In this document: in pieces, positions 36,914 through 46,341 of the stretch
Layout of the letters: each line of letters begins with the position of its first letter
Numbering within the stretch: position 1 is the stretch's first letter
Sequence record: PZ452594.1
Strand: one strand, 5' to 3'
DNA length: 64,000 nt
Source: a phage
Made by a program: the position numbers and the translations under genes
Notes under the pieces: generated by a model
Database searches by the model: none
Seen by the model: the letters and a program-made list of their open reading frames with translations, nothing else
Told to the model about the DNA's origin: nothing

Positions 36914-37387
36914 TTATTTGAACGATTTAACGTACTGAATAGAACCTTTACTATTTACGAAAGCGATTTTACCATTTTTATTATACATGGTAGCAGTACG
37001 CTGATAGCCATAAGTTTGTTTACCAGATTGATAACCAACTAATGCGAAATTATCTTCGCCCATTTTATTCTGTTTAGCGCGAATGCGTTCATGACCATGT
37101 GCCATAAGAACCTTAGCATCACCAGTTGCAATGGATCTACGAGTTTTTTCATCTTCAACTGTATTAACAAAGTCGTCAAATGAATCAAATTTAGCATGAG
37201 ATTTATTATACAGTTTTCCATCTACTGCATAATTATATCCCTGTACATCCATCTCAACTTCTGTACCATCATCCAATACAGCAGTGATTTTTTGACCTTT
37301 TTTAAATTTCAAAAGATCAGTAAAAGATTCAGCAATAATTTGAGAATTAATAGCTGCTTCAGTGATAAATTCTTGATATGTTTTCAT
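36914..37387 (-). CDS. internal-protein-like protein with N-terminal capsid-targeting sequence (157 aa)
   Basis: begins MKTYQEFITEA (T4 IP-type CTS ending in the prohead-protease E|A motif); ATG at 37385-37387 after AAAGGAAAC. Confidence 0.6.
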   Translation of the reverse strand: MKTYQEFITEAAINSQIIAESFTDLLKFKKGQKITAVLDDGTEVEMDVQGYNYAVDGKLYNKSHAKFDSFDDFVNTVEDEKTRRSIATGDAKVLMAHGHERIRAKQNKMGEDNFALVGYQSGKQTYGYQRTATMYNKNGKIAFVNSKGSIQYVKSFK

Positions 37388-37872: not shown

Positions 37873-38841
<969 letters not shown>

Positions 38842-41804: not shown

Positions 41805-42068
41805 TTATTTCATATTATTGAAATATTCTTCAGCAATTTCATCATTATCATGATAAACTTTAGAAGACAGTTTAACATAACTTTCAGCAGTGAACATGTT
41901 AATCACAACCTTTACAGTATACCACTGACCGTCTTCATTACCCATTACTGCATAAGTTTCAAACATCGGATGGTCAGGACCGATAACTTTAATATCATTC
42001 ACTGTACGACCGAAATCTTCTGAAACGCATTTCATAAAGAAGTTAAACAGTTCGCCGTAATTATCCAT
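41805..42068 (-). CDS. hypothetical acidic protein (87 aa)
   Basis: track start 42080 is TTG; ATG at 42066-42068 after GGAGAA. Confidence 0.45.
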   Translation of the reverse strand: MDNYGELFNFFMKCVSEDFGRTVNDIKVIGPDHPMFETYAVMGNEDGQWYTVKVVINMFTAESYVKLSSKVYHDNDEIAEEYFNNMK

Positions 42069-42109: not shown

Positions 42110-42146
42110 GTATAGTACCATGGAAGAACAGGGATGTAAACAGTTT
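42110..42146 (-). promoter_or_regulatory. early promoter (GTTTAC, 18 nt, TACTAT) with conserved 20-mer
   Basis: sense GTTTACATCCCTGTTCTTCCATGGTACTAT. Confidence 0.5.
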
Positions 42147-42270
42147 TGTGAAAAATTTTTAAAAAGTTTTAGGGAATTCTAGGGCCAGGAGGGGCAATTA
42201 AAAGGTAGGATAATATATTATAAAGGGTATAAACTAAATGATGCCTAGAGAGGCCCGGAAAGGCCTAGAT

Positions 42271-42300
42271 ACCAAAAAGCTCCAACCGAAAGGTTGGAGC
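42271..42300 (-). terminator. intrinsic terminator GCUCCAACC-UUUC-GGUUGGAGC + U5
   Basis: plus accaaaaa-gctccaaccgaaaggttggagc, directly 3' of the ORF ending at 42309. Confidence 0.65.
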
Positions 42301-42308
42301 TAAGAATG

Positions 42309-42770
42309 TTATTTGATTTGTTTAGCAGACCAAATGCGGTCTTTGATGATTTTTTGGAGGTCTTCAACATACTCTAGGTCATGAGCATGTGGATTATCTT
42401 TGAAACTATGAGCTCGCGCAAGTTTCTGGCCTTCGGTCTTAATTATCAAAAGTTCTTTAAGAATTGCTTCATACCTAGAGATAATTCCTTTAGCAATATT
42501 TTTTTCTTGTGCTGCTTTAGGGTCAGCCTTAGGAGCAGGTTTACCAGAAGGTTTTTCGAAAGCCGCACCAGTAGCAACCAGGCTTTTCCAGGCGGTGGTA
42601 ACATAGTTACCCACAAAGCCTTCAGCTCTCATATCGTCATAGAACTTGTACCGAGATTCGTCAGAAGCATCTTTATAAGAATATTTACCAGCTTTAATAG
42701 CAGCAGTTGCTACAGCGCGAACATCTGAAGCGGATGCTTCGGTCATTAAAAATTGAGCATAAGTTTTCAT
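42309..42770 (-). CDS. protein with CTS-like N-terminus (153 aa)
   Basis: begins MKTYAQFLMTEA; ATG at 42768-42770 after AGGAAA; has its own terminator. Confidence 0.5.
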   Translation of the reverse strand: MKTYAQFLMTEASASDVRAVATAAIKAGKYSYKDASDESRYKFYDDMRAEGFVGNYVTTAWKSLVATGAAFEKPSGKPAPKADPKAAQEKNIAKGIISRYEAILKELLIIKTEGQKLARAHSFKDNPHAHDLEYVEDLQKIIKDRIWSAKQIK

Positions 42771-42805
42771 TGTTATTTCCTGTGTTAATTAACTCATCTA
42801 TTTAT

Positions 42806-42837
42806 ACCAAAAAAGCCCCAACCTTTCGGTCGGGGCT
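42806..42837 (-). terminator. intrinsic terminator at the distal end of the tRNA/stable-RNA cluster
   Basis: plus agccccaacctttcggtcggggct preceded by a-run. Confidence 0.6.
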
Positions 42838-42840
42838 AAG

Positions 42841-43153
42841 CCTTGCGGCAACCTTGTCGGGGTTCCACCTGCTAAGGCAAGTGTTTGTACGAAACGCCGG
42901 GATTCGAACCCGGTTATTAAGCAGTTGACGCTACTCAATATTTTTAAAAGGCCATATCTCGACCATATCCGAACGTTCCGTCAAAAACGCTACTCGGCTT
43001 ACGGCAAAGATATTTCCTCGAATCGATAATTCGGTGCGCCGTTTCTGCTGTGATATAAGAGGGCATTAACAAAACATAAAGATTTATTAATGCCAGTCCT
43101 TAAACAGGGAACATCAGTCCGACGACTTACCGGTAGCGACCCGGTTTCTTGTT
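42841..43153 (-). ncRNA. stable small RNA(s) of the tRNA cluster (T4 rnaC/rnaD-like), tRNA-like T-arm
   Basis: no ORF; sense contains CCGGGTTCGAATCCCGG; lies between tRNA-Arg and the cluster terminator. Confidence 0.35.
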
Positions 43154-43233: not shown

Positions 43234-43899
43234 TTAAAATTTCATTTTTCGACCTTTAAACCATCCTTCTGGAATTGGGTCAGTTTTCTTAATACGTTTA
43301 GAAACTTTTTCATCTAATGAATGAATCCACATCATACCAAATTGGGAATTCTTTTCACCTTTCTGGTGATTATTTTTAGCGTGAATTTCTTTCATTTTAT
43401 TAATAGTTTCAAGAGTATGATGCTTATTTAAAAATCTGCTATTATTTAAAAATTTTTCCTTGTATTCAGGAGTTGACCATAAACGTTTAAATACATTTGA
43501 ACCATTTTGACGATATTTTTCTTGAAGTAAAATATCATTTTTAAAACGTGACTTAAACGATTTAGCTCCTTTTAAACTAGCGTCTTTCTTCTGATTTAGC
43601 ATCTCAGGAATATTTATATGATCCCATCCGCCTTCACCGCCAAGTTTTAAATTATACACATCTGGTCTATTTAAAAACTCTTCTGTGACAATATTTTTCT
43701 CGGCTTCAAGCATAGATTCTTTATCATCAAAATATTCTAATATTTCTTTAGAAAAATTTTCTATACCATACCTGTCTTGGGCTCTTTTTAATAATTTACC
43801 AGAACCCATATATCCATCATCTAAATTTTCGGTAGAATGCACACCAATATAAATTTTATTATTAATTTTATTTGTTATTTTATAAAGATAAAAATGCAT
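43234..43899 (-). CDS. segB: GIY-YIG homing endonuclease (SegB-like, 221 aa) inside the tRNA cluster
   Basis: GIY-YIG motif FYLYKITNKINNKIYIGVHS; ATG at 43897-43899; the longer track ORF would overlap tRNA-Tyr. Confidence 0.65.
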   Translation of the reverse strand: MHFYLYKITNKINNKIYIGVHSTENLDDGYMGSGKLLKRAQDRYGIENFSKEILEYFDDKESMLEAEKNIVTEEFLNRPDVYNLKLGGEGGWDHINIPEMLNQKKDASLKGAKSFKSRFKNDILLQEKYRQNGSNVFKRLWSTPEYKEKFLNNSRFLNKHHTLETINKMKEIHAKNNHQKGEKNSQFGMMWIHSLDEKVSKRIKKTDPIPEGWFKGRKMKF

Positions 43900-43945
43900 A
43901 TCAGTCCTTAATAAAGAACTGAGCGTCTCACGACGAGTCATAAAT

Positions 43946-44032
43946 TGGTGGGGAGTGATGGAGTCGAACCACCCGAGTCGCAATGACAATGAATTTACAG
44001 TCCACACCGCTACCTCTACGGGATAACTCCCC
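43946..44032 (-). tRNA. tRNA-Tyr (anticodon GUA), long variable arm, CCA encoded
   Basis: hand-folded: acceptor GGGGAGT/ACTCCCC, anticodon loop CTGTAAA, T-loop TTCGACT. Confidence 0.6.
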
Positions 44033-46090: not shown

Positions 46091-46112
46091 CCTATCTAAA
46101 AGTAAACTTATT
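46076..46112 (-). promoter_or_regulatory. early promoter (GTTTAC, 18 nt, TACTAT) with 24-mer ttgatagggtaatagtatcactac
   Basis: sense GTTTACTTTTAGATAGGGTAGTGATACTAT; 24-mer at 46067-46090. Confidence 0.5.
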
Positions 46113-46341
46113 TTTTACGAAAAATTGATTTATATTTATCAGCCCATTTCTCAATGACTTTTGCCGGGCCATAGATAACAAAGTAATCGCCAAACTCTTC
46201 ACCACCGAGTTGACCGAAATCATCTAATGCATCACGAAGAACTCCATGAGGCATTTCACCCATTTTATCTTTCTTGCCAGTGTAAATAAACTCAACTTTT
46301 ACATCAGCAGTTTCAGCAATAAATTCTTGATACGTTTTCAT
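46108..46341 (-). CDS. internal-protein-like protein with N-terminal CTS (77 aa); ipI-locus variant
   Basis: ATG at 46339-46341 after GGAGAA gives MKTYQEFIAETADVKVEF...; track start 46359 is GTG. Confidence 0.6.
   Translation of the reverse strand: MKTYQEFIAETADVKVEFIYTGKKDKMGEMPHGVLRDALDDFGQLGGEEFGDYFVIYGPAKVIEKWADKYKSIFRKK

Follow-up and report, generated by a model that had tools for sequence, protein, structure and literature searches.

A one-gene cassette between rnaC and e.8 of a T4-like phage encodes a candidate internal head protein

Results

The ORF at 42309-42770 and its neighbours

The window analysed here is the whole 64,000-nucleotide stretch of phage DNA in sequence record PZ452594.1. 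In the gap between the last gene of its stable-RNA cluster, rnaC, and the gene e.8 lies an open reading frame (ORF) of 153 codons, and the features of this locus are the following.

41805-42068, minus strand: e.8, the next unit downstream of the ORF
42112-42140, minus strand: sigma-70-type early promoter of e.8 and the genes downstream of it (TTTACA-17-TACTAT, with a TG extension), at the end of the late cassette
42268-42301, minus strand: the ORF's own intrinsic terminator, downstream of it (stem 42301-42278, then a T-run)
42309-42770, minus strand: the ORF, 153 aa by translation, with an ATG start and beginning MKTYAQFLMTEASASD
42778-42781, minus strand: Shine-Dalgarno sequence AGGA, 7 nt before the ATG, as read from the sequence
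42799-42806, minus strand: T4-type late promoter TATAAATA, 36 nt before the ATG
42808-42837, minus strand: intrinsic terminator of the tRNA/rnaD/rnaC transcript, upstream of the ORF (10-bp stem 42837-42814 with 7 GC, GAAA loop, T-run)
42888-43026, minus strand: rnaC (species 1 RNA), last gene of the tRNA/stable-RNA cluster, 100% identical to RB27 rnaC and 98.6% to T4 rnaC
43032-43152, minus strand: rnaD, upstream of rnaC

A 901-bp stretch around the ORF has matches in 703 phage records, and since the best of these, vB_EcoM_G8 and RB27, match at 97-98% identity, we regard the window as an RB27-like Tequatrovirus, i.e. a relative of T4. The genes of RB27 run, on the minus strand and in the direction of transcription, in the order 57B, ipI locus, tRNA.4-.2, tRNA genes, rnaD, rnaC, RB27_136, e.8, e.7 ... 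nudE, e. The product of our ORF is 100% identical to that of RB27_136, an unnamed hypothetical gene located between rnaC and e.8.

The stable-RNA cluster itself varies among these phages. Namely, the window carries a GIY-YIG (SegB-like) homing-endonuclease ORF at 43234-44007 (minus strand), between tRNA-Tyr and tRNA-Arg, at a position where RB27 has tRNA-Asn and no endonuclease. The true start of the endonuclease is probably an internal Met (MHFYLYKITNK...), since the listed ORF starts at GTG and overlaps tRNA-Tyr. Phage T2 has an extra 116-aa ORF between tRNA-Arg and rnaD (L009:12003-12353), which is missing in T4 and in the window; an ORF of similar size occupies the same position in G8 and mobillu, and the cluster seems to have a further variable slot here.

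A one-gene late transcription unit

The earlier note had described the ORF as preceded by the terminator of the tRNA cluster and as independently transcribed, with a strong terminator of its own at 42271-42300. Both stem-loops are indeed where they had been placed. The upstream one folds with an energy of -22.1 kcal/mol (z -3.7) and the downstream one with -18.6 kcal/mol (z -4.4), and in neither case did any of 200 shuffled sequences fold as well. What is more, the late promoter TATAAATA, found in addition directly after the upstream terminator, provides the unit with a start of its own. The enrichment of this word that one would expect in the window was not seen, as it occurs 12 times against 11.0 +/- 3.6 times in shuffles, and our promoter call consequently rests on its position and on its conservation in relatives. 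In particular, an exact TATAAATA stands directly after the terminator and 35-48 nt before the start codon in RB27, G8, fD1, Mineola (a Jiaodavirus) and MHG19, which brings the number of loci with this word, counting the window, to six, among them one Jiaodavirus and one unassigned Tevenvirinae phage. Klebsiella phage Mineola and Yersinia phage MHG19 share the promoter word with the window, and the rest of their intergenic sequence differs from that of the window. The Mosigvirus mobillu has a one-mismatch version of the word at the promoter position, and the record of fPS-65 independently annotates a 'predicted late promoter' and two terminators at the ORF locus. Elsewhere in the window, two TATAAATA words lie 13 nt apart at 38381-38401 (minus strand), upstream of the e/ipIV region, and may form a tandem late promoter.

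No sigma-70-type promoter was found upstream of the ORF, the next one (42140-42112) being that which serves e.8. The layout of terminator, late promoter, ORF and terminator is kept in the loci that we read in Jiaodavirus, in the unassigned Tevenvirinae phage and in Mosigvirus. Judged from these signals in the DNA, ORF 42309-42770 forms a one-gene late transcription unit, with the tRNA/rnaC operon on one side and the early operon of e.8 on the other. The three classical internal protein (Ip) genes of T4, ipI, ipII and ipIII, have sigma-70-like early promoters (GTTTACA...17...TA..AT) upstream, and TATAAATA does not occur within 90 nt upstream of any of them. As the T4 ip genes follow early-type promoters, the regulation of ORF 42309-42770 differs from theirs, a point against the Ip reading put forward below.

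A widespread family without a functional label

With the ORF product as query, tblastn returned 512 phage records, from phages of Escherichia, Shigella, Yersinia, Salmonella, Citrobacter and Klebsiella, while an HMM search of 1.84 billion representatives brought in only a small number of remoter relatives from phages and some truncated or chimeric family members; its one other hit, a PPR-repeat protein, was spurious. The earlier note had suggested homology and structure searches, and of these the former succeeded in placing the protein in a family, phrog_2280, and neither gave a match to a known function or fold. This family is listed in PHROGs v4 under 'unknown function', and the ORF product, Mineola_134 and a second gene of phage vB_EcoM_Nami, which is discussed below, match it over their full length with E values of 1e-52 to 1e-59. 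In every source examined the members are labelled 'hypothetical', probably because the family is missing from the laboratory phages T2, T4 and T6. Outside Repoila et al. 1994 and Bair et al. 2007, which lay beyond the search, the only gene name or description that we found in the literature was an entry in the proteome table of phage fD1. The family is previously unannotated as Ip, and the link between phrog_2280 and head targeting is made here.

Three chimeric proteins of metagenome or assembly origin (P0009, P0010 and P0015) carry parts of the ORF product. P0009 has an unrelated N-terminus followed by the last 31 residues of the ORF product; P0010 starts MTEASASD... and continues into a sequence that by eye is like Nudix (NudE), and would therefore imply a deletion from ORF 42309-42770 into nudE; and P0015 joins the N-terminal domain of the family to a different C-terminus. 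Together, the three point to frequent recombination in the region.

Zero, one or two genes between rnaC and e.8

In T4, T2, T6 and PST there is no gene between rnaC and e.8, and tblastn detected no remnant of one in T2, T4 or T6. An extra 360 nt in T2 belongs to an unrelated ORF between tRNA-Arg and rnaD. In the window and in RB27, two copies of the repeat TTAGCCCC..CCGAAAGGTTGGGGCTTTTTGGTAT, 536 bp apart, enclose the promoter and the ORF, and these flanking direct repeats (D2) are the upstream and downstream terminator copies themselves. A three-way alignment shows that T4 has a single copy of the repeat, followed at once by the sequence that in the window and RB27 lies beyond the downstream copy. 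The two copies of G8 and of fD1 differ by a single base. The contrast between a single and a double copy is what recombination between direct repeats would leave behind, and we read it as the probable footprint of such an event; on this comparison, recombination between the terminator copies would account for the absence of the gene from T2, T4 and T6. Mosigvirus and Jiaodavirus have the gene at the same syntenic position, which makes a loss in the lineage of T2, T4 and T6 the more economical reading.

The locus is polymorphic also in the other direction. Namely, it holds no gene in T2, T4, T6 and PST, one in the window and in RB27, and two tandem paralogs in Nami. The second cassette of Nami (L011:1140-1703) follows directly after the ORF homolog and consists of a late-promoter-like word, AATAAATA, a 187-aa ORF beginning MKTYAEFLTE/AAKLPSE... 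(here and below, the slash marks the predicted cut) and its own terminator, which ends in the same GCTTTTTGGTATCTAGGCC junction. EcNP1 and F25 probably also have the second cassette, from the same insertion of about 700 bp. An hhalign comparison of a small family alignment with the second gene of Nami gave a weak C-terminal match only, for which reason the claim of paralogy rests on the shared PHROG profile phrog_2280. The recent literature speaks of two Ip loci (PMC12373910), and ORF 42309-42770 lies outside both of those described (57B-tRNA.4 and denV-e), the rnaC-e.8 gap being a positional and not a mechanistic departure from them. As it holds zero, one or two leader-bearing genes, the rnaC-e.8 site behaves as a third Ip locus.

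A conserved leader of the capsid-targeting type

The leader of the ORF and the two other leader-bearing ORFs of the window are as follows.

42738-42770, minus strand: codons 1-11 of the ORF, MKTYAQFLMTE, a leader like a capsid-targeting sequence, with a predicted prohead-protease cut after Glu11
36914-37387, minus strand: IpIV ORF, 100% identical to PST IpIV and to fD1 g129 (PHROGs: internal virion protein)
46108-46341, minus strand: IpVI-like ORF, 78% identical to PST IpVI (PHROGs: internal virion protein)

It had been proposed that the protein starts with a capsid-targeting-like leader that ends in Glu-Ala, and that it is the third protein of this kind in the window. To put a number on the resemblance, we used a relaxed pattern, i.e. 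M, 1-2 residues, Y or F, 1-2 residues, F, one of I, L, V or T, and a hydrophobic-x-E within 20 residues. Three of the 516 Met-starts in the window with at least 50 aa following match this pattern, against 0.45 expected from shuffled N-termini, so the resemblance exceeds chance. Besides ORF 42309-42770, the matches are precisely the ORFs at the two canonical ip loci, and the count of three is therefore correct. At the second ip site RB27 holds an IpI-type gene, so the window is unlike RB27 at the ipI locus. BLAST of the ORF product against T4 IpI, IpII and IpIII and against the IpIV and IpVI-like proteins of the window gave alignments confined to the first 18-42 residues, and the profile phrog_7857, 'internal virion protein', matches it weakly (E 0.16) over residues 1-43.

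Across the family the leader varies in length and keeps a constant plan, as in MKTYAQFLMTE/A, MKSYAQFLNEVVLNE/A, MKSYAEFLTE/Q, MKFKEFLAE/A, MLKFNEFLAE/G, MLNFNEFLAESQEINE/A and MISFNEFVDGNLITE/S. At the site in the window, M-T-E/A, Met stands three residues before the predicted cut, where documented T4 sites have Leu or Ile, and the leaders of relatives end in L-N-E, L-T-E, L-A-E, L-I-E, I-T-E or I-N-E. Members at 31-45% identity have leaders ending in L-A-E, L-I-E, I-T-E or I-N-E, then A, S or G. In other words, members from other Tevenvirinae genera retain a leader end of the form [L/I]-x-E even where identity is as low as 31%, and the leader is conserved. Documented cuts of the T4 prohead protease include ITE-6 and LTE-619 in Alt (PMC5694885), and the L/I-x-E ends of the family match them.

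Could the MKTY... start be something other than a targeting signal? One may suppose that the product is an unpackaged, late cytoplasmic protein, and that its start is a 5' coding and translation-initiation module which T-even genes have come to share by recombination. The first 12 nt of the ORF (ATGAAAACNTAT) are common to ipII and ipIII, which is as this supposition would have it, and so is the Met in the third position before the predicted cut. However, in distant homologs (MLNFNEFLAE, MISFNEFVDGNLITE and MKFKEFLAE) the pattern (aromatic, x, E/Q, F, L/V ... [L/I]-x-E) recurs although both the codons and the length of the leader differ, which shows that the leader peptide itself is under selection. 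The purely late promoter fits the timing of head assembly, and the second gene of Nami at the same locus bears the same kind of leader. For these reasons, we consider an unpackaged cytoplasmic protein unlikely, and we continue with the leader as a targeting signal.

The predicted mature protein

42309-42737, minus strand: predicted mature protein (residues 12-153) and stop codon, described from an AF2 model, its composition and family alignments
42499-42505, minus strand: A7 homopolymer at the boundary between linker and C-terminal domain (A9 in fPS-65, A6 in SfPhi01)

The mature region is rich in Lys and Ala, as had been remarked before: the 142 residues after Glu11 include 19 K and 23 A, with a pI of 9.4 and a net charge of +6. 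AlphaFold2 (AF2), run on a 10-sequence alignment, gave a model of the ORF product with a mean pLDDT of 77.6, in which the leader (1-11) is disordered and is followed by a three-helix N-terminal domain (14-67), a Lys/Pro/Ala linker of low confidence (72-83) and a long C-terminal helical hairpin (84-150). The mature protein is thus predicted to be all-helical and to have two domains. Pfam contains no match to the ORF product, a sequence-profile search of the PDB gave nothing below E = 1, Foldseek of the predicted structure against the PDB gave no match with E < 1, and a structure search of BFVD returned its own family only; in none of these searches did the ORF product resemble IPI* or any solved structure in sequence or fold.

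In the homologs of Klebsiella phages the leader and the N-terminal domain are retained, with 56-60% identity across residues 4-71, and a different C-terminal part follows, which means that the protein is modular. A conserved N-terminal domain combined with an exchangeable C-terminal one would suggest a modular effector. Six database proteins of 93-112 aa (P0006, P0008, P0011, P0024, P0026 and P0037) are frameshifted at the A-run, and retain the leader, the N-terminal domain and the linker only; the frameshifts may stem from sequencing errors in the homopolymer or may mark a genuine mutational switch.

A basic protein of this kind could, even if packaged and processed, serve inside the head, as a DNA-associated or charge-neutralising component with no specific target after ejection. 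The pI and charge of the mature part and its Lys/Pro/Ala-rich linker agree with such a role. Furthermore, the family sits at one syntenic site across several Tevenvirinae genera, unlike the hypervariable, fast-turnover genes of the ipI locus, and this conservation could point to a structural role and not to one in an arms race. On the other hand, T2, T4, T6 and PST lack the gene, which is therefore not needed for DNA packing, and the exchange of the C-terminal domain between lineages is a better fit to target-driven variation. Moreover, all three T4 Ips that were once seen as DNA-associated filler now have specific anti-restriction targets (PMC12373910). Altogether, we find a purely head-internal role improbable and prefer a protein that acts after ejection.

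A homolog detected in a virion preparation

The Yersinia phage fD1 encodes a 157-aa homolog, g140, which is about 80% identical to the ORF product. In ultracentrifuged virions, g140 reached the strict LC-MS/MS threshold for particle-associated proteins (PPAP), and it is marked as having no T4 counterpart (PMC8309999 Table S3). From the same preparations came 113-137 phage proteins, DenV, NudE and lysozyme among them, together with 672 host proteins (PMC8309999). As about half of all fD1 proteins were detected, the detection is of low specificity, and given the breadth of the preparation it raises the odds of packaging modestly. This low specificity also counts in favour of the cytoplasmic protein considered above.

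The detection bears on a further possibility, namely that the product is a dispensable accessory of the prohead core or scaffold, like gp67 and gp68, which would be loaded by its leader, degraded or expelled at maturation and never reach the next host. Its late expression would suit such a protein, and so would the protease-type site at which its leader ends and a further L-K-E motif at residues 104-106 in the mature part. That said, this motif lies within the confidently predicted long helix of the AF2 model and is for this reason unlikely to be accessible to the protease, there is no sequence similarity to gp67 or gp68, the ORF is far from the head-gene cluster, and the fD1 homolog was detected in mature virions. 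We therefore judge a transient scaffold component to be very improbable, and retain the packaged and ejected protein as the preferred reading.

Discussion

The combination of a late one-gene unit, a conserved leader and a basic mature part leads us to propose that ORF 42309-42770 encodes an unannotated internal protein of the T4 type. In particular, the ORF would be transcribed late. Its leader MKTYAQFLMTE would act like the capsid-targeting sequence found in IpI, IpII and IpIII and attach the product to the prohead's gp22 scaffolding core. The gp21 prohead protease would then cut the leader off the 17.1-kDa product after Glu11, giving a predicted mature start of ASASDVR (ASASDVRAVATAAIK). The resulting basic, helical protein of 142 aa and 15.7 kDa would remain with the packaged DNA, be ejected with it into the next host, and there might neutralise a host defence, in the manner in which Ip1, Ip2 and Ip3 act against distinct GmrSD type IV restriction enzymes. 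The separate parts of this proposal do not carry the same weight. Packaging of the product in the head we consider likely. The full identification as a T4-type internal protein, which covers the cut after Glu11 and the ejection together with the DNA, appears to us somewhat more probable than its negation, and an anti-defence role is a possibility that we hold tentatively. If the protein is ejected, anti-defence would still be its likeliest job, because it would arrive before any phage gene is expressed. Cleavage, ejection and anti-defence are all argued here by analogy with Ip1-3.

The series of T-even Ips, including IpIV-IpVII, was reportedly described by Repoila et al. in 1994 and by Mullaney and Black in 1996. 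Our ORF resembles the Ips of T4 and the T-even phages in several respects. Like them, its product is short, dispensable and basic in its mature part, it has a leader of the form MKT[YF]..F[IL]...E followed by a small residue, and it has no homology to other Ips beyond the leader. Like theirs, its presence varies among close relatives, and it is located in the same 10-kb accessory region, from 57B to e. At the same time, there are differences. The ORF sits in the rnaC-e.8 gap and not at 57B-tRNA.4 or denV-e; it has a late promoter only, whereas the T4 ip genes have early-type promoters; its leader departs from the usual one by a Gln in place of Glu, and ends in M-T-E at the predicted cut; and its family, phrog_2280, with which it shares a full-length match and which is without a functional label, is conserved from genus to genus and nowhere annotated as Ip. 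According to a study from 2025, the T4 proteins Ip1, Ip2 and Ip3 are injected and inhibit GmrSD type IV restriction enzymes, each of the three a single specific one (Silas et al., PMC12373910), and they share the leader and no other sequence (PMC12373910). Inhibition of a GmrSD enzyme by the product of our ORF would be assigned solely by analogy with these three.

The arrangement of the locus recalls a second known system. Namely, promoter-early stem-loops (PeSL) have been proposed to shuffle accessory-gene cassettes in T4-like genomes (Arbiol 2010 PMC2839356; Comeau 2014 PMC4122927). As with PeSL, a variable ORF is flanked on either side by copies of a short motif that combines terminator and promoter, and one copy alone is left in a relative without the ORF. 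Recombination between the repeats would have this outcome, and in our case it is suggested by comparison of the genomes. Unlike in PeSL, the promoter joined to the stem-loop is late (TATAAATA) and not of the early sigma-70 type. One may go further and suppose that the rnaC-e.8 gap is an undescribed third Ip locus of Tevenvirinae, in which cassettes of terminator, late promoter and leader-bearing ORF come and go by recombination at their terminators, and that the phrog_2280 proteins are injected effectors, constant in their N-terminal domain and swappable in their C-terminal one, directed at a defence other than the GmrSD targets of Ip1-3. This wider picture we regard as doubtful.

What would all this mean for T4-like phages? 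If true, the payoff would be modest, in that a family and a locus would be added to a known class, and no new principle. The family is carried by approximately 500 sequenced T4-like phages, including therapeutic isolates and those of the BASEL collection. In light of the 2025 result on Ip1-3 (PMC12373910), any further leader-bearing protein, such as the one considered here, becomes a concrete anti-defence candidate.
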